Assembly: GCA_027492205.1 (NCBI GenBank) | Contig: JAOZFN010000014.1 | Span: 1-64,000, forward strand | DNA length: 64,000 nucleotides | Direction: 5' to 3' | DNA from: Thermoproteota archaeon | GTDB lineage: Archaea; Korarchaeota; Korarchaeia; Korarchaeales; Korarchaeaceae | Shown: positions 49,986-60,139 of the stretch, piece by piece | Position numbering within the stretch: the stretch's first letter is position 1 | Layout: the number at the start of each line of letters is the position of its first letter | Notes under the pieces: model-generated | Seen by the model: only the letters and a program-made list of their open reading frames with translations | Database searches by the model: none | Told to the model about the DNA's origin: nothing | Translations under genes and position numbers: made by a program

Positions 49986-50121
49986 TGCCAAAACTAGATT
50001 CTGCAGTGGTGCCGATCGCATCAGAGCCCACTCACGCGAGTAGATCCTGCGACGCCCGCCTGCCGGTCGCGGGCAGCCAATCGTTAAAAATTGAGCCGAA
50101 TGAGTCGCCAAGATCGGGCAC

Positions 50122-50736
50122 ATGGCCGACCTCTCGGCGCTACTGCTGCTGGGCGCGCTGAGCCTCCTGGGCGTGATCCTCTACTTGGCGATACACTACA
50201 GCGTCCGGCCAGGAGCGAAGCCCGGGGGGATAGATGATCCTCTCAGGCGAGCATTCCTCAGGTACTCCGTCTTGGCCTCGCTGGTCCTCGTCCTGGGGCA
50301 CGCCTGGGTGGGCGTGGAGGAGATGTTCAGGAGCCTCACAAGGCAGATCAAGCTAGAGCCCGTCTACGTGGCGAACCTGAGGGAGCTGGAGCCCGGGTCG
50401 GCGGTGTCCTTCATGATGCCGGTCGACCCGGACATGCTGCCTGCGGATCACCCCTGCATCCTCATCAGGCTCACGCCGGAGGAGGCCCAGAGGGCCGGGA
50501 GGGAGCTGGTCGCGTACAGCGCCAGGTGCACCCACCTCGGGTGCATAGTGGAGTACCTGGAGACGGACGGCAGAGAGATCTACTGCCCCTGCCACGCTGG
50601 GATATTCGACCCCCTGACGGGGAACCCAATCTCCGGACCCCCGAAGAGGCCGCTCCCGGAGGTACAGCTCAGGGTAGAGGAGGACGGTTCAATCTACGCC
50701 GTGGGGTGGGTGGGGCAAGGTGAGCAGGGCGAGTGA
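50122..50736 (+). CDS. Rieske 2Fe-2S subunit of a Rieske/cytochrome b complex
   Basis: CTHLGC and CPCHAG boxes, GPPKRPL; internal Tat-like RRAFL. Confidence 0.93.
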   Translation: MADLSALLLLGALSLLGVILYLAIHYSVRPGAKPGGIDDPLRRAFLRYSVLASLVLVLGHAWVGVEEMFRSLTRQIKLEPVYVANLRELEPGSAVSFMMPVDPDMLPADHPCILIRLTPEEAQRAGRELVAYSARCTHLGCIVEYLETDGREIYCPCHAGIFDPLTGNPISGPPKRPLPEVQLRVEEDGSIYAVGWVGQGEQGE

Positions 50737-52141
50737 GGGTCCCTCCCTCAGGGAGAGGTGGACGCTCAAGTGGTGGGCCAGGGTGCACGGGGGCTGCAAG
50801 ATCCCCCTGCACGCCCTAAGCCCGCTCAACGGCCTCGGCGGCCTGGCGTTCCTCATGCTCCTGATCGAGGCCGTGACCGGCATCATCCTGGGCATGTACT
50901 ACGAGCCCAGGTTCAACGAGGCCAACCTGGCCTACGAGAGCGTTGTCGCCATCACCGAGAACCTCAAGTACGGCTGGCTCCTCAGGGGAATTCACTACCA
51001 CGCCGCCAACCTGATGATCGTGCTCAGCCTGCTCCACTTCCTGAAGACCTACATCGCCGGCAACTACCGAGAGCCGAAGGGCCTCTGCCACGTGGTCGGC
51101 ATCCTGACCGGCCTCCTGGCCATACTGGCCTCCATCACGGGATACTCGATGAGGGCCGACCACATAGGGGCGGAGGCGATCCTCATCGGCCAGACGCTGG
51201 TGAAGTACATGCCCATGGGGGGCCTGCTCTTCAGGATGGTCTACGGGGTCGGCACCATGGACGACGCCCTCATCAGGTACAACGCCTACCACTACGCCCT
51301 CGGGGCCCTGCTGATAGGGCTTGTCCTCCTCCACGTGTGGTTCAGCCACAGGCACCACGCCGCCCCTCCCATGGACGACGGGCCCTCCATCCCCGCGATG
51401 CCCGTCTTCCCGAACTTCCTGCTGTCCGTCCTGTCGGGGGTGTTCATGGTCCTAGGCGGGTTGGTGCTGCTCAGCGTCGCGTTCCCTCCCCACCTAGGCG
51501 TGAAGTACGTGCCGGGAGAGCCCGTCCCGCCCGGCGTGCCGGAGTGGTACATGGTGGGAGACTACACCCTCATCAAGAGCGGCATAAACCCGGTGATCGC
51601 GGGCATGGTCGTACCGCTCCTGGCCGTGACCCCGATAGCCCTCATGCCCTGGATAGACAGCTCTGGGCCCAGGCACCCCAGGCACAGGAGGTTCGCGATG
51701 ACCTACCTGTCGGTGTTCATGGCCGAGTTCACCCTCATGACCGTGTGGGGTTACCTGACCCCGGGTCAGCAGGTCCTGCTCTCGCAGCAGCTTCCGGCGG
51801 CCCTGGCCGTGGCGGTGCTGGCCGCGATCCCGGCCCACTGCGCCACCAGGCCGAGGGTGGTCAAGTTCGGGGCCCCGGAGGCCAAGAGGGTGGAGAAGAA
51901 GCCGATCCTGCCGTGGAGGAATATAGCATCGTGGGTCATGGCGATGCCAGTCGGCGTGGTGACGGCCCTTCTGGGGTGCCAGGTGGCTCTGGCGCTGCTG
52001 GGGTGGTACTGGAACCACCTGGGACTCCAGCGGCTATACGCAATGTCACTGGGCGCCTCGCTGTTCGCGCTCGGGGTCGTGCTGCTGGTGGCCAAGTCGG
52101 CGCTATTCGATCTCGACATGCTAAGGAGGAGGCCTACGTGA
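50720..52141 (+). CDS. Cytochrome b (unsplit) of a Rieske/cytochrome b complex
   Basis: Heme ligands GIHYH..LLHF and AYHY..LLHV; Qo motif PEWY. Confidence 0.92.
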   Translation: MSRASEGPSLRERWTLKWWARVHGGCKIPLHALSPLNGLGGLAFLMLLIEAVTGIILGMYYEPRFNEANLAYESVVAITENLKYGWLLRGIHYHAANLMIVLSLLHFLKTYIAGNYREPKGLCHVVGILTGLLAILASITGYSMRADHIGAEAILIGQTLVKYMPMGGLLFRMVYGVGTMDDALIRYNAYHYALGALLIGLVLLHVWFSHRHHAAPPMDDGPSIPAMPVFPNFLLSVLSGVFMVLGGLVLLSVAFPPHLGVKYVPGEPVPPGVPEWYMVGDYTLIKSGINPVIAGMVVPLLAVTPIALMPWIDSSGPRHPRHRRFAMTYLSVFMAEFTLMTVWGYLTPGQQVLLSQQLPAALAVAVLAAIPAHCATRPRVVKFGAPEAKRVEKKPILPWRNIASWVMAMPVGVVTALLGCQVALALLGWYWNHLGLQRLYAMSLGASLFALGVVLLVAKSALFDLDMLRRRPT

Positions 52142-52164
52142 ACGTGGCGTGTCGGAAGGGGAAC

Positions 52165-54297
52165 TCAATTCGGTCCCCCGGGAGTAGCCGCCCTGAACCG
52201 CCAGGTGTCGGATCCGTCCGGAACCCTCTGCCAGGTGCGGCCGTCATCCCGAGTGTCCCTCATCAGTATGGTGAAGTCGACGAGCTTCCCCCTGCTGTCT
52301 ATAAGCTGGACGCACTCATTTCTGTTGTCCAGCCACCTGCCAGAGGGGAGGAAGACGTAGTACGGCTGCCACGGCCAGATTATCGCGAACGGAATCTCCC
52401 GCTCCGCCGGCTCTCCGTGGAGCGCCACGACCCTCCACCCCCGGATGATGACCGGGTACCAGTTTGGATTGTACAGCTCCACCCACTCACCGTCCGCGTC
52501 CCCCCCTTCTGGGTTGAGCTCCACCTCGTTCACGTACACCAGGTGACTCGGCCTCTGCACGACGGCGTACATCCTCCACGCCGCGGTCCCCGACTCTGTG
52601 TCTCCGTCGGTGAAGTGTATCAGGAGGGCCCCCTCGTGAGTCCCGGGGGACGCCGAACCGGCCTCTATCCTGAACGTCACGGCGGCATATCCTCCCGGGG
52701 CTATGGTGGCCTCTCCCACCTTTCCGGCATCCCTCCTCCAGACGAGGGTACCGCCCACCCTCACCTTGTAGATCAGGTCGACCATCTCGCCTGTCGGCTC
52801 GGCCCAGACGTACTGGGTCTCGTCGTCGTAATTCACAAGAACCACTATTCCGTTCCTCACGCTGACCTCGCCCTGTCCAACTATCCCGAGGTCGATTAGT
52901 ATCTGACCGTCGGTGACGTTGCTCCAGTACCGGTCGCCCGTGGCCACGTTGGCCCCCCCTGGGAGGACTATTGAGACCCGCCCTGAGAGTCCCCAGACGC
53001 CATACTCGCTCGCGCTCGCGTACCCTGAGGAGGCCAGCAGTGAGAGGGCGACCAGAGCGACCGCCGCTAGCTTCACTTCCCCCGCCAGCCTCAGCTCCGA
53101 CCTGACCCTGGGATGAGCCCGCCTCCCAGTCATCTCCTCGAGATCTCTCACTATCTCTGCGAGAGTTATCACCTCTTCGTCGCTGAGCCTTCCCCTCGCC
53201 GCCGCAAATCGCCTGGGCAGCTCCTCAAGCATCTGCTCCAGGACGTCTCCCTTTTCCCTGTAGAGGAGCAAGAAGACAACGGGAAGAGCGGAGATAAGTG
53301 CTACGACTAGCGAGTTACCAAAGATTATTCCCGCGAGGGGGTCTAGGTGGGAGAGTCTCTCGAGGGTCGAGTCCGGCAGGATCATGCCGAAGGTGACGCT
53401 CCATATGTGGATCTTCCCACCGAGTTTGACCACACCCTCACTCTGAGGGGCCAGAACGGGCACCCTGAGTTCCACCCTCCCCCCGGCCGGGACGCTGACC
53501 ACCCGCGCGGGCAGCTCTACCATATCCCAAAGCTCTCCCTCCGGGCTCAGTACGGCGGTCGTCGGAAGCATTCCGTCGTTTTCTACCGTTATAGTGAGGT
53601 TCGCCGACCCGCCCGGGGGAAGCGCCACGCTGGTGCCCATCCCCACGGACTCTCTGAGCCTCGGATCCACAATAACCGTGAACCCGACGACGTCGCTGTT
53701 CATCACCCCGAGGATCCCCATCATGACCATCGCCACGAGGACTGCCATCAGCACGCCCGCACGGCCTCCCCTCTCCTTCCTCTCGAGGATTGAGGGTCCG
53801 ATCAGCAGTCCCATGACCACAGCGGATGTCGCGAACAGGCCCGCCGGGTTCGTGAGCACAGACCTCAGCCCGGGACCCAGGTAGATGGCCAGGTAGCCCA
53901 CCCTAGGTACCTTGATCGGCCGACCGCCGAGCGAAAGGGCCCTCCCCCTGACCTGAGAGATGGGGGTGTACTCCACTCCGCATGCCTCCTGATCCGTCAG
54001 CTCGTTCGCATCGCCCTTCGTTACGATACCCTGGTGCGTCACTTCGACGACCCTGTGGAGGACCTCGTACCCGTTGCAGATCCTGACAAGCACTATGTCC
54101 CCCACCTCGACGCCCTTAATGGGCCAGACCACCACCAGGTCTCCCCTCTGAAGGGTGGGCCTCATGGACCCCGAGGTAACGACGCGGAGGGGGTACGGAA
54201 CGCCCAGGAAGGTGGAGGCGATGAAAAACAGAGAGAGGGCGAGCGCGCTCAGGAGGGCCGCATCAGCAGCCACCCTCAGAGCGCGCCGCCAGGTCAT
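52165..54297 (-). CDS. SipW/S26B-type signal peptidase fused to an Ig-like domain, a fibre-subunit-like domain and a lamin-tail domain
   Basis: SGSMRPTL..GD, VLHRV, TKGDAN..D (Ser/His type); five hydrophobic segments; C-terminal VYVNEVELNP...EWVELYNP...WLDN...TPGGPN. Confidence 0.88.
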   Translation of the reverse strand: MTWRRALRVAADAALLSALALSLFFIASTFLGVPYPLRVVTSGSMRPTLQRGDLVVVWPIKGVEVGDIVLVRICNGYEVLHRVVEVTHQGIVTKGDANELTDQEACGVEYTPISQVRGRALSLGGRPIKVPRVGYLAIYLGPGLRSVLTNPAGLFATSAVVMGLLIGPSILERKERGGRAGVLMAVLVAMVMMGILGVMNSDVVGFTVIVDPRLRESVGMGTSVALPPGGSANLTITVENDGMLPTTAVLSPEGELWDMVELPARVVSVPAGGRVELRVPVLAPQSEGVVKLGGKIHIWSVTFGMILPDSTLERLSHLDPLAGIIFGNSLVVALISALPVVFLLLYREKGDVLEQMLEELPRRFAAARGRLSDEEVITLAEIVRDLEEMTGRRAHPRVRSELRLAGEVKLAAVALVALSLLASSGYASASEYGVWGLSGRVSIVLPGGANVATGDRYWSNVTDGQILIDLGIVGQGEVSVRNGIVVLVNYDDETQYVWAEPTGEMVDLIYKVRVGGTLVWRRDAGKVGEATIAPGGYAAVTFRIEAGSASPGTHEGALLIHFTDGDTESGTAAWRMYAVVQRPSHLVYVNEVELNPEGGDADGEWVELYNPNWYPVIIRGWRVVALHGEPAEREIPFAIIWPWQPYYVFLPSGRWLDNRNECVQLIDSRGKLVDFTILMRDTRDDGRTWQRVPDGSDTWRFRAATPGGPN

Positions 54298-54331
54298 GAT
54301 GCCCCTCTAGCTAGACCAGCTGGCGACTAGA

Positions 54332-54898
54332 TTAACTCTCCGGACTGCCGGGGCTGGACGGGGTGCCGCTCGCGCCCTGCTCCATGCCCTGCATCTGTAC
54401 CGTGAACGCCTGGTCGGATCCCAGCGGGGCCGTCGGGCCTATGCTCAGCATCACCCCGACGGTACCAGTCTCATCGCTGTCAAGTGTGAGCGGGTCGCTC
54501 TGGGTTATCTGGGTCCACGAGCTCCCGGTCCACTTGTAGAACGTCAGGCTCACCCCGCTGGGGAGCCCACTCGTCTCGAACCAGAAGACCCACGTCTCGT
54601 CGTCGTAGTTGGTCACGTTGAAGGCAGCCATGGCCTTGAAGGTCATCCCCCTCGCCCAGGGACCGAAGTCGCACTCGATCATGCTGGAAGAGTTGACGTA
54701 GCAGACGTTGTGGGCCGAGGCGCCGGGGCCTTTCACCGTGTCCAGGCCGGGTATTATCGCAATGTTGGCGCTCTGCGGGGCTACTATGCTGACCCTGGCC
54801 CCGATGCCCGCCTGCATGTACTCGTAGGCCCTGACTCCCACCGAGAGCGTTAGCATCAGGAAGGTGAGGGCCAGCGCGGCCCTTCTCCAGTTGGCCAT
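54332..54898 (-). CDS. Secreted beta-rich protein, putative TasA/DUF1102-like fibre subunit
   Basis: Signal peptide MANWRRAALALTFLMLTLSVGVRA, no C-terminal anchor, immediately upstream of the SipW-like peptidase; FNVTN motif. Confidence 0.7.
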   Translation of the reverse strand: MANWRRAALALTFLMLTLSVGVRAYEYMQAGIGARVSIVAPQSANIAIIPGLDTVKGPGASAHNVCYVNSSSMIECDFGPWARGMTFKAMAAFNVTNYDDETWVFWFETSGLPSGVSLTFYKWTGSSWTQITQSDPLTLDSDETGTVGVMLSIGPTAPLGSDQAFTVQMQGMEQGASGTPSSPGSPES

Positions 54899-54934
54899 GG
54901 CCAACACCGCTATACTGTTTAGCCCACCTCCTCT

Positions 54935-55113
54935 ATTAATGTTGGCACCTCTGCTTCTATTGCAAGCAATTGACTTGAAATTCATGCGATATACCGGGCA
55001 TTCTCCCCCATGGAGATATGTTTGAACAATATCTTTAATTTCCTCCGATTGATTTTCATTTTCTCTCATATTAATCAAAACATCTTTCATAAATTGGGTA
55101 TTAAAGTTTACTG
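54935..55113. promoter_or_regulatory. AT-rich divergent promoter region
   Basis: Strong AT island between the fibre operon and the hydrolase; imperfect inverted repeat AGATATGTT..AACAATATCT near 55014-55034. Confidence 0.55.
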
Positions 55114-55408
55114 CGTGCGGATCTGCAGGAGGCGAAGCTCAGGAGTGAGAAGAGTTACGGAGGTTCGCTTCCCAACTCGGGGAGCCTTGGAAATCGCCTC
55201 AGCCTGTACGTCTTCTCTATCCTGGGCTCTGACCGATCCCCTCTCGCCAAGAATCTCAGATAGGGACTTCAACTCGGTGTAGGAGGAGAAGAGGGCGCGG
55301 GAAAACGTGGTGGAGAATCGTTCAAAGGACTAGACCTCTCATACCCTTCCTCTCGGGCGAGTACGGCAGAGGTAATTAAAATACCGAATGTGTGCTTAAG
55401 AGTTTAAG

Positions 55409-57274
55409 ATGAGGCCCACTGGGCGGGCGGCGGACAGGGTGGTGATCCGCCGCCCCATCGTCTTTCTCCTCCTCTCAGGGCTGATGCTCCCAAACGCTCT
55501 CGCGGCCGCCGGAGGTCCACACTCTGGCCGAGTTGTGGTCGGCTGGCGACCCAGAAAGCTCCTCTTCTATTACGGATACCCCAGTCTGTTCAACGGGGCC
55601 GGCGGGAATCTGGAGCGGGCTGCCGCCCAGTTCGACCGCTACGACATCGTGGTCCTAGGGGCCGGCCTCGAGGACCCGGCCCACCCCCAGCACCAGGCCG
55701 CTTCAGCGGTCATAGGACTGAGCGAGGCGCAGTTCTATGGGTACGTCCCGCTTACGCTGCCGATCGGAGAAGTCTGCGAGAGGATAGACGAGTGGGCCGA
55801 CATGGGGGTCGCGGGGGTGTTCCTCGACGAGGGCGGGTACGACTACCTTGCGCCGAGGCTGGGGGGCATCCTGCGGGCCAGGATGCACCAGGTCGAGGCC
55901 GTCCGGTGTGCCAGGGAAAGGGGGCTGGCGGAGGCCCTGAACGCCTGGAACCCCGCAGACGTGCTCGCGTCCTCCCACGGGGAGCCCCCCCTACCGCTCG
56001 GGGAGGGAGACGCGGTGCTGATCGAGAGCTTCGTCTACGGCGCGGGGGAGACTAGGGAGGAGTACCTCTGGCACGTCGACGAGTACGCCCGAATGAAGGT
56101 GAGTGGAGGCCCGGAGTACTGGTGCCTCGTCACCACGGGGGCGGCGAGCGAGCACGAGAACCGACTGGTGGGGTACGACGCCCTGACCTACGCTGGAGAG
56201 ATCTGCGACGCCGTGGCAGTTCAGGAGGACCTTGGGGAGGACTCTACAGTGTTCTACGCGTTCGCCGAGCGGGAGGGAGCGCCCGGATGGCGGAGGATCA
56301 GGGGAATGACGCTGGCCGCCTACTGGGTCGGCGACTTCGACAATCGGACCGAGCTAAGGATCGTGCTGGAGAGGGTCAGGGGCATGTGCCTGAACACGAT
56401 AGCGATTTCTCCCTACTGGGCCACTCCCAACCTGCGATCGACCGAGATAAGGCCGACGGAAGTCACCGTGAGCGACGACGACCTTCGGGCCCTCATCAGG
56501 ATGGCGAAGTCCCTCGGGTTCCGGGTCATGCTGAAGCCCTCCCTGATAGTCGAGACGGGCGAGTGGTTCGCCCTCCTTGATCCGGTGGACAGGGACGCTT
56601 GGTTCGAGTCCTACAGGAGGTTCCTGCTCCACTACGCCGAGATCGCCCAGGAAGAGGGCGTCGAGTATCTGGTGGTGGAGGTGGAGCTCAGCTCGATGGT
56701 CTCAGACGAGAGGTGGTTCGGGCTCATCGACGAGGTTCGGGCCGCGTACTCCGGCCTCATAGGGTACGCCCAGCCGCAGGGTGGGGAGTTCAACCCCCAG
56801 GAGGCCCTGCCCGTGTTCGCGGAGGGGGTCGACTTTATCGGGATAGACGCCTACTACCCCCTGCCCTCGGGGAACCTCTCCGAGATCGCGGGGGCCTGGA
56901 GGGAGATTCACCTGAGGAGGATAGAGCCGCTCGGGCTCCTGTTCGGGAAGCCCGTGGTGTTCACCGAGATAGGCTACAGGAGCGTGGTCGGGGCCGCAGA
57001 TGCCCCGTGGGACTGGCGGTCCGACCTGCCGATGAGCGAGGAGGAGCAGGCCCTCCTCTGGAGGGCCTTCCTGGTGGCCGAGGAGCCGCTCGTAGACGGG
57101 TTCGTCTACTGGGCCGAGACGAGCGGCGAGTGGGACCCGTCTACCGACAAGGGATACTCGATCCTCTACAAGGAGGCTGAGCTGGTTGTGAGGGGGGCGG
57201 CGTGCGGGGGACAGAGACCTCGAGGCAGACCGAGTGTGTACAAATCGAGGTCTTTCGGGTTGTTCCCGCTCTAG
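55409..57274 (+). CDS. Secreted tandem glycoside hydrolase: N-terminal TIM barrel (GH114/GH135-like) + GH113-like domain
   Basis: Signal peptide; GVAGVFLDEGGYDY..NAWNP; then RVMLKP, WFESY..FLLHYA, VDFIGIDAYYPL, KPVVFTEIGYRS. Confidence 0.75.
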   Translation: MRPTGRAADRVVIRRPIVFLLLSGLMLPNALAAAGGPHSGRVVVGWRPRKLLFYYGYPSLFNGAGGNLERAAAQFDRYDIVVLGAGLEDPAHPQHQAASAVIGLSEAQFYGYVPLTLPIGEVCERIDEWADMGVAGVFLDEGGYDYLAPRLGGILRARMHQVEAVRCARERGLAEALNAWNPADVLASSHGEPPLPLGEGDAVLIESFVYGAGETREEYLWHVDEYARMKVSGGPEYWCLVTTGAASEHENRLVGYDALTYAGEICDAVAVQEDLGEDSTVFYAFAEREGAPGWRRIRGMTLAAYWVGDFDNRTELRIVLERVRGMCLNTIAISPYWATPNLRSTEIRPTEVTVSDDDLRALIRMAKSLGFRVMLKPSLIVETGEWFALLDPVDRDAWFESYRRFLLHYAEIAQEEGVEYLVVEVELSSMVSDERWFGLIDEVRAAYSGLIGYAQPQGGEFNPQEALPVFAEGVDFIGIDAYYPLPSGNLSEIAGAWREIHLRRIEPLGLLFGKPVVFTEIGYRSVVGAADAPWDWRSDLPMSEEEQALLWRAFLVAEEPLVDGFVYWAETSGEWDPSTDKGYSILYKEAELVVRGAACGGQRPRGRPSVYKSRSFGLFPL

Positions 57275-57332
57275 GCCCAATCTCAAGCCTGGTCCCGGTG
57301 GATCGGCCGCCGGAGAATCAGGGGGGCCTTCC

Positions 57333-58700
57333 TCACGGCCTCCATCCAACGACCTCCCTAGACAAGAATCTGAGGAGAGACTCCAGCTTGAGATATGAGA
57401 GCCACAGGGAGTAGGCAACGTGGTAGGGAACGGTCCAGGGAATGAGATCCGCCCTCCCCTTCGACGCCAGAACCGTCGACGTCACGATGATCCCCGGGAC
57501 GTGCTGGAGCGGTAGGAAGGCGAGGAAGGCCAGAGATATCACCTTGAGCGGCACGGATCCCAGGAGCAGACCGACTCCGGTGAGCCTCGAGATCAGGAGG
57601 GCGAGCGGCACGGCCACGTATCCCAACACGCCCAGCGAAGGGAGTAGATACTCGACCAGGATCAGGTACGCGAAGAGGGCGACTCCCACGGCCCCCCGCC
57701 TCAGGCTGAGTATCATCTCCGGGTACTTGGAGAGGACCTGCAGCCCCCCGACGAACCACCTCACCCTCTGGGACCTCAGCTCCCGAGCGCTCCTCACCGG
57801 CTTGGTCCAGGCGACGGCCTGGGGCGCGTAAACCACCCTGTAACCCCTCCTCCAGGTCGAAAGGGACACGTCAAAGTCCTCCGCAACGGTGTCAGGTGGA
57901 ATCAGACCCATCTCCCTCAGTAGGGACCCCTTGTAGATCCCCATGGCCCCCGGGGTTATGAGCACCCACCCCATGTAGTCCTGGACCGTCTTCCCGAGCC
58001 AGTAGGAGGCGGCGTACTCTATCTCCTGCATCCTCTGCAGGAAGGAGGGCCTGATCGACGGGGCCACCCTCACGTCCCCGGAGGCGGCGCCCACGTCCTC
58101 AGCTCGGAGGGCGTCAACGGCCGCCCGGGCCGCCCACCTGGACAGCACGGTGTCCGCGTCCGTGGTTATTATCACCTCCCCCCTGGCCGATGCTATGCCC
58201 AGGGTCAGGGCCTCCGCCTTTCCCCTGTTCTCGGGGTTGACCAGAACCCTGGCCCCAGCGGCGCGAGCGACTTCGGCCGTTGAGTCCGTGGATCCGTCGT
58301 CCACCACTATGACCTCCAGCCTGTCTTGGGGGTAGTCCTGCCTGAGCGCGCCCTTGACGGCCAAACCGACGGAGAGTTCCTCGTTGTAGGCGGGGATGAC
58401 CACCGACAGGCTCGGCGGGTCTCCCCCGTCTTGGATCACGTCGGTGGGGCGGGACCTCACGGCTGCAAGCCAGACCAAGAACAGGAATAGGTAGACGGAG
58501 ACCAGGAACGCCCCGAGGAGGAGGAACAGGGAGATCACCACAAGGCGTACCTGGTCTGGAGGGGCATCCGGGTAGACCAGGGAGACCAGCCACGGGATGG
58601 CCCTGGTCAGGAACACCCCGTGGGCGGCGGTCCCCCCCACGCTGCCCGCGAGGGCAACCGCGTAGACTGCCCTCCTCCTCCAGCGCCCACCAGAGCTCAA
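57333..58700 (-). CDS. Processive GT2 glycosyltransferase (IcaA/PgaC-like polysaccharide synthase)
   Basis: IPAYNEE, DDGSTD, GKA, TDAD, AEDFD, QRVRW; N- and C-terminal TM helices. Confidence 0.9.
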   Translation of the reverse strand: MSSGGRWRRRAVYAVALAGSVGGTAAHGVFLTRAIPWLVSLVYPDAPPDQVRLVVISLFLLLGAFLVSVYLFLFLVWLAAVRSRPTDVIQDGGDPPSLSVVIPAYNEELSVGLAVKGALRQDYPQDRLEVIVVDDGSTDSTAEVARAAGARVLVNPENRGKAEALTLGIASARGEVIITTDADTVLSRWAARAAVDALRAEDVGAASGDVRVAPSIRPSFLQRMQEIEYAASYWLGKTVQDYMGWVLITPGAMGIYKGSLLREMGLIPPDTVAEDFDVSLSTWRRGYRVVYAPQAVAWTKPVRSARELRSQRVRWFVGGLQVLSKYPEMILSLRRGAVGVALFAYLILVEYLLPSLGVLGYVAVPLALLISRLTGVGLLLGSVPLKVISLAFLAFLPLQHVPGIIVTSTVLASKGRADLIPWTVPYHVAYSLWLSYLKLESLLRFLSREVVGWRP

Positions 58701-60139
58701 AGGGCGGTCCCTCCGACGGCCCTCCTAAGGGCGTCGCTCGGGTACAGCTCGGTCAGGCCCCCGACATCCGCGGCGGCGACCGCCCCTATGTCTACCAGCC
58801 ACCTAACCAGCCTGACCACCCTCTCGAGCGGAGCCCCCATCTCCACGGCAATCTCCTCCGGCGTGAGCCCCGGCCTCTCAGAGATGAGGGTCAGCACCCT
58901 CCAGGTGAGCGGGTCGGCGGCCAGGCTCATGGCCAGGACCAGCTCCCTGTCCCTGGGGTGGAACCAGAGCCTCCCGACCCCCCTGACCACCGCCGAGTCG
59001 ATCAGCCCGCAGGCCTCCATGGCTGCCAGCCTGACCTTCGTGGGAATCCTGCACCCCTCACACTCCGCCTCCAGCTCGGGGAGAGACCTCCCAGGGGCGT
59101 CGAGGATCAGGGAATACAGCTTTCCACTGGACCTGTCGGCCCTGAGCACCTTCCTCAAGATGGGCCTCAGGGGCATCAGGGCTGCCACGCCCGCGGCGTA
59201 GGGCGCGTAGCCGACCAGCGTCGCGCCCAACAGGGCCGCGTAGGATAGGCTGGCGAACCACGCCACCCCCCTGGGAGTCGCGATGGACGCCGCCGCGGAC
59301 CTCACCAACGCCGCCGCCCTGTCCCACGCTGGCGGGGGTCTGGGCACCACGCCCTCCTCGGCCGCCGAGAGAGCGCGACCGACCAGCTCCAGGATCCCCC
59401 CGGATTTGACCTTCGACTCCACGACCGGGACCACCGGGTTGAAGGCCAGCGTGAGCACCGCGCCCCCGCCAGAGCGGCAGGCGACGATGGCGGGTGAGCC
59501 GTCCGCTTCTGACGTGGCGAGGACCGAGCAGTTGGAGGATGGTCTCAGGTTCGCCCACCACAGGGAGGGGTCGTAGCTCGCCGTCACCGACCCCCCTACC
59601 TCGTGGATAGTCACAGTCCCGGTGCCGGTGTTCAGCGAGGTGAGCTCAACTCCGGTCAGCTCCTCGAGAGGGGGAGACCAGCTCTGCGAGTAGGTGTTTA
59701 GGCCCACCAGCAGGACCCTCCCCTCGCCCACCACCCGGCCGAGGGCTCGAATCTCCTCCTCGGTGATTGCCCCGCCCTCGGTCCAGGGGACGTTCAGGTC
59801 TGGGATCCAGATTTCGGAGAAGCCTCTCAGGAACCAGGTGTCAGACAGCCTCTCCCTCTCTTCGTCCGCCCCCGAGTACTCAGAGCCGAGGTAGAGGACC
59901 TCAACCCTGATCTCGCGACCCTCTGCCTCAGACAGCGAGCCGGCCAGCTCCTTCCCGAACCTGACGTCCTCGACGTCTGAGGCTACCAGGAGGACGCTGG
60001 GGGGAGGGGTCTGCCCACCCCTGGTCTCACTTCCCCCCTGGACCGCAGAGCCGGGGAGAAGCGCGCCCGCGACCAGGAGCACGGAGGCGGAGAGGGCGAT
60101 AAGCAGAAGAGGCCGAGGGGCTGACTGGGATCTGGACAA
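58697..60139 (-). CDS. Extracellular alpha/beta (GATase-like) domain + TM + tandem wHTH regulator, paralog 1
   Basis: Signal peptide, GGGAVLTLAFNPV, TM, APGRSLPEL and RPGLTPEEIAVEMG HTH units. Confidence 0.7.
   Translation of the reverse strand: MSRSQSAPRPLLLIALSASVLLVAGALLPGSAVQGGSETRGGQTPPPSVLLVASDVEDVRFGKELAGSLSEAEGREIRVEVLYLGSEYSGADEERERLSDTWFLRGFSEIWIPDLNVPWTEGGAITEEEIRALGRVVGEGRVLLVGLNTYSQSWSPPLEELTGVELTSLNTGTGTVTIHEVGGSVTASYDPSLWWANLRPSSNCSVLATSEADGSPAIVACRSGGGAVLTLAFNPVVPVVESKVKSGGILELVGRALSAAEEGVVPRPPPAWDRAAALVRSAAASIATPRGVAWFASLSYAALLGATLVGYAPYAAGVAALMPLRPILRKVLRADRSSGKLYSLILDAPGRSLPELEAECEGCRIPTKVRLAAMEACGLIDSAVVRGVGRLWFHPRDRELVLAMSLAADPLTWRVLTLISERPGLTPEEIAVEMGAPLERVVRLVRWLVDIGAVAAADVGGLTELYPSDALRRAVGGTAL

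Follow-up and report, generated by a model that had tools for sequence, protein, structure and literature searches.

A signal peptidase fused to a fibre-subunit-like domain in a putative two-gene fimbrial cassette of a korarchaeal genome

The two genes and the peptidase half of the fused protein

We analysed a stretch of 64,000 nucleotides from a Thermoproteota archaeon of the family Korarchaeaceae (assembly GCA_027492205.1, contig JAOZFN010000014.1, positions 1 to 64,000 of the forward strand; hereafter the window). Between positions 52165 and 55090, its minus strand contains two open reading frames (ORFs), 34 nucleotides apart. The downstream one (52165..54297) encodes a protein of 710 residues that joins a signal peptidase I, a membrane module, a linker, an internal signal, a domain resembling the product of the upstream gene and a lamin-tail-like domain. 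The upstream one (54332..54898) encodes a protein of 188 residues, the putative free, major subunit of a fibre. The locus is best explained as a minimal fimbrial cassette of two genes that belongs to the archaeal donor-strand type, tafi-like and lying within the wider TasA-like world. An earlier note on this DNA had proposed that the peptidase carries its own substrate, and the fusion on which this proposal was built proved to be real, as it is kept in further fused representatives.

The gene of the free subunit was delimited from the ORF and the DNA, from whole-length relatives and from an AlphaFold2 (AF2) model. The ORF as listed (54332..55090, minus strand, 252 residues) crosses an AT-rich stretch ahead of the ATG at 54898 and is probably over-extended. 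Four relatives of 187-192 residues, namely three database representatives and the free copy of the genome G025, align along the whole of the free subunit. In-frame GTG and TTG codons lie just ahead of this putative start codon (window 54899-55130), with a GGAGGTG about 25 nucleotides upstream, and one database copy (P0009) has 217 residues. Residues 1-24 are a predicted Sec-type signal peptide ending in V-R-A, and the mature protein (164 residues, N-terminus Y-E-Y) has an isoelectric point (pI) of 4.08.

The gene of the fused protein has a GAGGGG (54302-54307) 4 nucleotides ahead of its ATG. The protein starts with a first transmembrane (TM) segment (TM1, residues 15-33) and a signal peptidase I catalytic domain (residues 34-152; together 53842..54255, minus strand), assigned with the TIGR02228 model and from motifs. 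These are followed by TM2 (153-171), TM3 (181-199), an outer beta-sandwich (200-323) and TM4 (324-342), which occupy 53272..53841 of the minus strand and were delimited from hydropathy, the structural model and homology. Residues 16-121 matched TIGR02228 (archaeal or endoplasmic reticulum (ER) type, peptidase S26B) with 59.7 bits (cut-off 51.85), and the enzyme scored 62.4 bits with the same model in a six-frame scan of the genome. The motifs S44-M-x-P-T, L-H81-R-V-V and G-D-A-N...D-Q were invariant in the three fused proteins that we aligned. The closest solved structures by sequence were human SEC11C (E 1.3e-6) and SEC11A (E 2.2e-6). The strands of the beta-domain span residues 202-300, with predicted local distance difference test (pLDDT) scores of about 61-84 per block in the full-length model. 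Residues 10-338 matched the stand-alone, 360-residue peptidase of another genome, G037 (E 6.3e-19, 27% identity). Further stand-alone relatives of 369-373 residues exist, and P0062 (371 residues) covers 92% of residues 1-345; in a language-model atlas, residues 1-350 adjoined clusters of peptidases of 327-362 residues, which we take as a lead only. Judged by its sequence, the segment 1-342 is a two-domain, four-helix archaeal signal peptidase I of TafD-type layout with predicted peptidase activity, the likeness to TafD being drawn through the description of the Thermococcus and Archaeoglobus homologues in PMC11821415.

The earlier note had called the enzyme SipW. This name was not borne out: the SipW equivalog model (NF046067) gave 34.3 bits, far under its cut-off of 190, and we therefore rejected the SipW orthologue. 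The same genome has a second signal peptidase I on contig C6 (60668-61156, locus L013), a frame of 212 residues that scored 90.1 bits with TIGR02228 and is presumably the housekeeping enzyme. This rules out that the cassette enzyme is the sole housekeeping peptidase, and means that the cassette copy can be dedicated to the fibre. Four other proteins (P0004, P0005, P0006 and P0008; 423-446 residues) combine a long polytopic N-terminal membrane region with a C-terminal signal peptidase domain, and resemble the 'ten-helix' peptidases that bioRxiv 10.64898/2026.01.04.697558 ties to AbpX loci.

A 19-residue hydropathy window identified five hydrophobic segments in the fused protein (15-33, 153-171, 181-199, 324-342 and 408-426). 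Lysine and arginine are enriched in the N-terminal tail (3 of 14 residues), in the loop 172-180 (4 of 9) and in the linker (12 of 65). The five segments and this positive-inside pattern place the peptidase, the beta-domain, the subunit-like domain and the lamin-tail-like part outside the cell, and the order of helices and strands in the low-confidence full-length model agrees with this predicted topology. The claim that five TM segments would put peptidase and subunit on the same outer face was thus supported by hydropathy and by the charge distribution.

The internal subunit-like domain and the conservation of the fusion

The domain formed by residues 430-585 (52543..53010, minus strand) is homologous to the free subunit, and its first 21 residues or so are the predicted donor strand. 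By BLASTP, residues 409-503 of the fused protein matched residues 69-175 of the 252-residue ORF (36.2 bits, E 8e-7, 34/108 identical). This alignment covers the stretches that had been matched by eye in the earlier note, and the proposed resemblance was therefore sustained. When two free and two internal copies were combined into a profile, this found only two places in the 1.94-Mb genome, the free subunit and the internal domain, with E values of 4.8e-67 and 2.6e-65, the second being that of the internal domain. An alignment of five sequences contained three invariant motifs: an A followed by x-E-Y, A-N-x-A, and N-Y-D-D-E. The internal domain is accordingly a true homologue of the free subunit, and the homology, as seen in BLASTP and the alignments, includes the cleavage-site motif and the N-terminal strand. 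The N-Y-D-D-E cluster (residues 75-77 of the mature free subunit, 490-493 of the fused protein) was invariant in the five aligned copies, while P0012 and P0014 each differ from it at one position. Along with the N-terminal E-Y and the pI of about 4, it is reminiscent of the calcium-linked contacts of donor strands described for AbpX and cannulae.

Ahead of this domain lies an internal signal-peptide-like segment, which is also TM5 (residues 408-429; 53011..53076, minus strand). It opens with GTG-AAG (V-K) and ends in A-S-A, the predicted cut falling between A429 and S430, so that S430-E-Y follows the A-S-A; the signal-peptide-like segment that had been noticed at 53076-53011 is thus indeed present. 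In eight aligned free and internal copies, position -1 was A in seven and T in one, position -3 was A, V or T, and a polar or helix-breaking residue stood at -4/-5 in all eight, as did E-Y at +2/+3. Since the -3/-1 residues and the E-Y motif are kept, the internal segment looks as cleavable as the signal peptides of the free subunits.

The linker that precedes the internal signal (residues 343-407; 53077..53271, minus strand) is predicted to be cytoplasmic and helical, and is charged (12 K+R, 14 D+E). Its junction with the internal signal bears on the possibility that the minor subunit is mainly a separate product started at the in-frame GTG at 53076, with the read-through fusion as a by-product or a second isoform. 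A start there would yield a signal peptide of the classic M-K-hydrophobic-A-x-A kind, the signal-like segment begins with GTG-AAG in the G025 homologue as well as in the window, and a run of G precedes the window's GTG. This run is only 2 nucleotides from the GTG, as against 4 nucleotides for the GAGGGG at the gene's own ATG, and no Shine-Dalgarno-like run is found ahead of the GTG in G025, which makes present-day use of the codon doubtful. P0012, a fused homologue of 890 residues, does not have V-K at this place. In addition, the frame has stayed open in all four fused forms and their linkers are alike in length and charge, which would be unexpected if read-through had no value. The linker is 42% (P0001) and 26% (G025 protein) identical to that of the window, similar to the neighbouring domains and no worse than the beta-domain. 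Internal initiation as the main source of the subunit therefore appears unlikely; of the earlier suggestion about this GTG, the codon behind a run of G is there, but its use as an internal start is weakly supported at best. From the sequence, the GTG-AAG may be the former start codon of a separate gene.

The C-terminal part (residues 586-710; 52168..52542, minus strand), a candidate adhesive end of the minor subunit, was described as a lamin-tail domain in the earlier note. This was upheld in part: PF00932 matched residues 586-674 with an E value of 8.8e-6 over 97 of its 109 profile positions, but with 26.5 bits, under the Pfam cut-off of 34.3. The assignment as lamin-tail-like is based on this sub-threshold match and on homologues. 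P0001 (713 residues) has a precomputed PF00932 match, residues 586-710 retrieve lamin-tail-domain proteins, and proteins of the genomes G034 and G036 are 36-38% identical over residues 584-710. The pLDDT of this part is below 50 in the full-length model. The outer part varies among the fused proteins, being lamin-tail-like in the 710- and 713-residue forms and an unrelated region of about 330 residues, with no family match, in the 890- and 915-residue forms. A PDB sequence search with this part gave matches to the designed propellers 'Cake' and 'Scone', through a motif of about 20 residues (682-703; 52189-52254). We rejected these as relatives, as no stretch passed alone; the matches are probably due to chance, inflated by internal repeats.

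The same fusion was found elsewhere. P0001 is 50% identical to the 710-residue protein with 100% coverage (E 9e-236). G025, which belongs to the same order but to another family, encodes a free subunit of 187 residues directly followed by a fused protein of 915 residues, 30% identical to residues 7-583 of the window protein. Identity to the window protein was 62% (P0001) and 49% (G025) in the peptidase domain, and 52% and 28%, respectively, in the subunit-like domain. With the window's own protein there are four fused representatives (710, 713, 890 and 915 residues), down to about 29% identity, and the three other fused clusters hold six database sequences from NCBI, ENA and Logan assemblies.

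When 1.84 billion representative proteins were searched with a profile, 42 reached E <= 1e-3, and six of these cover the whole domain in one stretch: three free subunits (187, 192 and 192 residues) and three internal copies, at about residues 418-591 of fused peptidases (713, 890 and 915 residues). The 36 other matches were partial, none reaching profile positions 1-11, and most consisted of several stretches in long repeat proteins. No stand-alone minor subunit was found in this search. In a word-based search for homologues of the free subunit, nothing but the window's own protein came up, and a scan of contigs with the subunit profile gave 34 stretches that fit the pattern, one of which was confirmed (a G025-type locus). 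Among 40 species genomes of the class, the profile was present in two, the genome studied here (G000) and G025.

On the question whether homologues are fused or split, three further fused representatives (713, 890 and 915 residues) come from separate assemblies. This indicates that the fusion is conserved. It also bears on the possibility that a frameshift or an assembly error joined two genes, for which it can be said that the window comes from a single metagenome-type assembly and that a look-up of sequencing runs listed none for 52165-54898. The uninterrupted architecture in G025, P0001, P0011 and P0012, and in six NCBI/ENA/Logan sequences with 29-50% identity to the window, makes such an artefact highly improbable, and we rejected it because the same fusion occurs in separate assemblies.

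Fold comparisons and the predicted donor strand

The AF2 model of the free subunit is all-beta, with a pLDDT of 84.1 and a predicted template modelling (pTM) score of 0.79. In a structure search, independent of Foldseek, of 48,161 representative chains of the PDB, the top chain was the Tafi pilus of Natrinema (9p0a_C; Z 7.4, root mean square deviation 3.3 Å, 110 residues aligned). The bundling pilus AbpA of Pyrobaculum came second (7ueg_A, Z 6.6) and the Sulfolobus thread Saci_0406 twelfth (7pnb, Z 6.0), while Hyper2 (9bac) had a Z of 5.1 and several chaperone-usher pilins had Z values of 5-6. Structures of the TasA fibre, TapA and AbpX were not among the matches listed. At the sequence level, Pfam and NCBIfam gave no TasA-superfamily match, and a PDB sequence search matched no member of that group (TasA, AbpA, AbpX, thread or CanA); with the free subunit it returned chance-level rows only, such as glycerol kinase (E 0.006). 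DUF1102 (PF06510) was not found in the own genome. In the language-model atlas, a DUF1102 cluster lay at 0.92 for the subunit, again a lead only. From these comparisons, we consider that the system would work like a tafi-type fibre, its subunits being candidate members of the pilin family.

A co-fold was made of residues 429-585 of the fused protein with the free subunit in its mature form. The interface score ipSAE was 0.88, 0.85 and 0.88 in three runs, as compared to 0.00 for the best control; the partner had a pLDDT of at least 92, and the runs agreed in at least 88% of the contacts. In a calibration, 58 of 80 solved complexes attained the mark used for ipSAE, as compared to 2 of 110 mismatched pairs, figures that are rough since own alignments were used. 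Residues 2-22 of the second chain, which correspond to 430-450 of the fused protein and start at the predicted cut, contacted residues 49-67 and 133-149 of the free subunit, i.e. two strands of its sandwich. N-terminal strand complementation, which the earlier note had suggested looking for, was thus predicted in silico, with the strand of the internal domain placed in the free subunit. In the model, this geometry is as expected of an initiator giving the first strand.

In the tafi system of Haloarcula hispanica, as described in PMC11821415, the processing of TafA requires TafD, a dedicated peptidase that has four membrane helices and two domains on the outside, and TafC is modelled as a two-domain tip and donor of the first strand, the roles of TafC, TafF and TafG being given there without knockout tests. 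The role of minor subunit (tip or nucleator) that had been suggested for the internal domain fits this published model. Taken as a whole, the earlier note's interpretation of a self-processing polyprotein was supported in part. We lean, with modest confidence, towards the interpretation that the 710-residue protein is a TafD-type peptidase fused to a TafC-type minor subunit; a cut after A429 would release the C-terminal 281 residues, and these would prime the polymerisation of the major subunit.

Several observations weigh against this interpretation. All fold matches of the free subunit had a Z below 8, with integrin hybrid and MSP Ig-like domains within about 1 Z of the pilins, and Foldseek with the same model found nothing at E <= 0.001. 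No Taf model (TafA NF052520, TafE NF052522), DUF1102 model (PF06510) or TasA model matched the free or the internal copy, and an hhalign comparison of the subunit family with three DUF1102 proteins gave a probability of 16% and an E value of 0.0016 over 112 co-linear columns. A search of the own genome (96.4% complete) for DUF5305 (TafG, PF17231) returned nothing at E <= 1. As for the models, a homologous, pilin-like pair may pass the co-fold through its likeness to solved donor-strand filaments; the co-fold is blind to the difference between the cleaved and the uncleaved form; and the full-length AF2 model is poor (mean pLDDT 56.5).

In the full-length model, residues 449-583 of the internal domain form an Ig-like sandwich with Z values of 9.2-10.6 to the first domains of PapD, FimC and Caf1M and to MSP domains, matches that come from a low-confidence model and include dozens of near-tied Ig-like domains. 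These values, which exceed any pilin match of the free subunit, and the donor-strand type of the co-fold interface would suit a chaperone or substrate-holder, a fused Ig-like domain that holds or caps major subunits outside the fibre by donor-strand complementation, as PapD does. We regard this as quite improbable, given the quality of the model from which the region was taken and the many near-tied domains. Moreover, the domain is a close paralogue of the subunit, with which it shares N-Y-D-D-E and the N-terminal motif, and archaeal donor-strand filaments are reported, in the published texts PMC12337348 and PMC12518558, to assemble without chaperones.

The main rival to a cleaved initiator is an uncleaved anchor. 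The fifth helix would then be permanent and the subunit-like domain, tethered to the peptidase, would form the base of the fibre next to the cell, as has been proposed for the TafF anchors, so that the fibre would be fixed to its own processing enzyme. The topology permits this, and the cassette has no other candidate for an anchor. On the other hand, the n-h-c layout, the -3/-1 residues and the E-Y spacing of cleaved-type signal peptides are kept in all four fused proteins. The donor strand of the co-fold (430-450) starts at the predicted cut, and in an uncleaved protein it would leave the helix without a spacer. An anchor would also be expected to accept a strand rather than to give one, and the variable outer domain suits a tip better than a base. 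For these reasons the anchor seems possible, but clearly not probable.

A putative initiator, its possible origin and its place among known fibre systems

With release of the minor subunit as the preferred interpretation, the cassette could work as follows. The first gene would provide an acidic major subunit with a Sec signal peptide. The second would represent two canonical neighbours joined, a TafD-type peptidase and a TafC-type subunit, the latter consisting of a pilin-like and a variable outer domain. The signal peptide of the minor subunit would survive as the fifth helix and carry the C-terminal 281 residues to the face of the membrane on which the catalytic domain lies. The peptidase, acting in cis or from a neighbouring molecule, would cut after A429; the freed strand 430-450 would insert into the first processed major subunit and start the fibre; and with the cut of each later major-subunit precursor a further donor strand would become available. 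Being fused, initiator and enzyme would be coupled in space, in time and in their numbers.

A bolder form of this proposal, which we consider rather doubtful and mention as a speculation, is a self-priming, single-chain machine. The cut would occur in cis and the strand would be handed over, at the active site, to the next precursor, so that cleavage drives polymerisation. Every further cleavage would repeat this hand-over, and the second outer Ig-like domain would hold the growing base. If this were true, a dedicated signal peptidase would be to donor-strand fibres what sortase is to Gram-positive pili, and the assembly of archaeal donor-strand fibres at a single membrane, with neither chaperone nor usher, would be explained.

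Viral polyproteins whose internal signals span the membrane are cleaved behind these by the SEC11-type (ER-type) signal peptidase of the host, which frees the downstream ectodomain. The enzyme is there a separate host complex, whereas enzyme and substrate would here be one cellular chain.

A possible origin of the fusion is suggested by a locus of G037 (L018, G037:C1:44000-58000). It contains a winged helix-turn-helix regulator gene (DUF7344), three DUF1102 genes, the 360-residue peptidase mentioned above, a protein of 462 residues and a DUF5305 gene. The 462-residue protein is secreted, multidomain and DUF11-bearing, and its N-terminus weakly matches the TafE and TafA models. The locus is a complete, canonical, Sec-dependent, tafi-like cluster as described for Thermococcales and Archaeoglobales in PMC11821415, where the gene numbered next to the peptidase in the Thermococcus and Archaeoglobus loci encodes the TafC analogue. 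In G037, the stop codon of the peptidase and the start of the next gene overlap as ATGA, with a GGAGGTG 13 nucleotides upstream. Because of this overlap between the peptidase and tip-subunit genes, a small indel could create the fusion and the topology seen in the window; it would join the short cytoplasmic tail of the peptidase to the signal peptide of the next gene.

Compared with tafi (Tat-fimbriae) of H. hispanica and its Sec-dependent look-alikes (PMC11821415), the cassette shares a dedicated peptidase of TafD layout (four helices, two outer domains), a minor subunit of two domains as in TafC, for which a tip role has been proposed in that system, and the order in which the peptidase gene directly precedes that of the tip subunit. 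Small acidic subunits are likewise common to both (PMC11821415; for Natrinema PMC12337348, PDB 9p0a), the beta-sandwich fold and strand donation being reported there and predicted here. It differs in that peptidase and tip-type subunit are one polypeptide and that the cassette has two genes rather than the five to seven of the loci described in those texts. No DUF5305 (TafG), regulator, adapter or separate anchor was found in it. In addition, its export signals are of the Sec and not of the Tat type, the outer domain is lamin-tail-like instead of laminin-G-like, and the subunits match neither the TafA and TafE models nor DUF1102.

The tapA-sipW-tasA operon of Bacillus subtilis, as presented in PMC9245690 and PMC11821415, similarly encodes a dedicated ER-type peptidase next to the subunit of a donor-strand matrix fibre and to TapA, a minor protein from which the first strand comes. 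According to these descriptions, SipW is separate, has two membrane helices and is not fused to TapA, and the subunits studied here have no TasA family match. A two-gene operon with a TIGR02228-type peptidase is also formed by Pyrodictium abyssi AbpX and the signal peptidase I downstream of it (bioRxiv 10.64898/2026.01.04.697558; PMC12518558). AbpX shares with our subunits a pI of about 4 and conserved aromatic and acidic residues where the donor strand begins, and AbpX loci elsewhere carry tip and minor subunits (same sources). The AbpX-linked peptidases differ in having ten membrane helices, and the sole fusion mentioned in the accessible text of these sources is with DUF5305, not with a fibre subunit. 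Such fusions of signal peptidase I with DUF5305 (Anaerolinea, Actinoplanes; 10.64898/2026.01.04.697558, PMC12518558) are comparable to ours in that a fibre peptidase has absorbed a neighbouring gene of its locus. The partner is there an accessory membrane protein, while it is here a substrate that has kept its own cleavage site. Dedicated peptidases beside fibre genes, and peptidase-DUF5305 fusions, have thus already been described (PMC9245690, PMC11821415, PMC12337348, PMC12518558, 10.64898/2026.01.04.697558). A fusion of peptidase and fibre subunit goes unmentioned in the consulted text of the same five sources, whose supplementary locus tables could hold cases, and literature searches brought up no further paper.

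The two genes also stand apart in the genome. Contig C23 of a same-genus genome (G001) aligns with the window at 50121-52122 (92% identity) and then straight at 55399-55620 (88%), so that 112 bp take the place of 3,276 bp (52123..55398, no strand assigned). This indicates that the two genes form a discrete cassette. In G001 (L021), the cytochrome b gene is followed by the GH113 gene with only those 112 bp in between, the cassette being an indel; in G003 (L022), a further congener, genes similar to succinate dehydrogenase/fumarate reductase come after the cytochrome b gene, and the junction is thus variable. The flanks in the window are Rieske and cytochrome b genes on one side, and genes for a GH113 protein, a GT2 synthase and a 480-residue protein on the other. 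The latter three, at 55409-60139, encode a secreted GH113 (mannanase-family) protein of 621 residues, a multi-helix family-2 glycosyltransferase of 455 residues with synthase-like matches, and the 480-residue protein, which had no family match. This trio could be an exopolysaccharide module adjoining a matrix fibre.

For the donor-strand fibres of archaea and Gram-positive bacteria (tafi, bundling pili, TasA), ideas on initiation and on the link with dedicated peptidases have so far come from structure predictions. A natural fusion of the enzyme with a minor subunit that has kept its cleavage site is a genetic hint that the two act in the same place and in a fixed ratio. As the fusion reduces the system to two genes, it would also provide a compact construct for the study of cis cleavage, of strand nucleation and of the coupling between processing and assembly.

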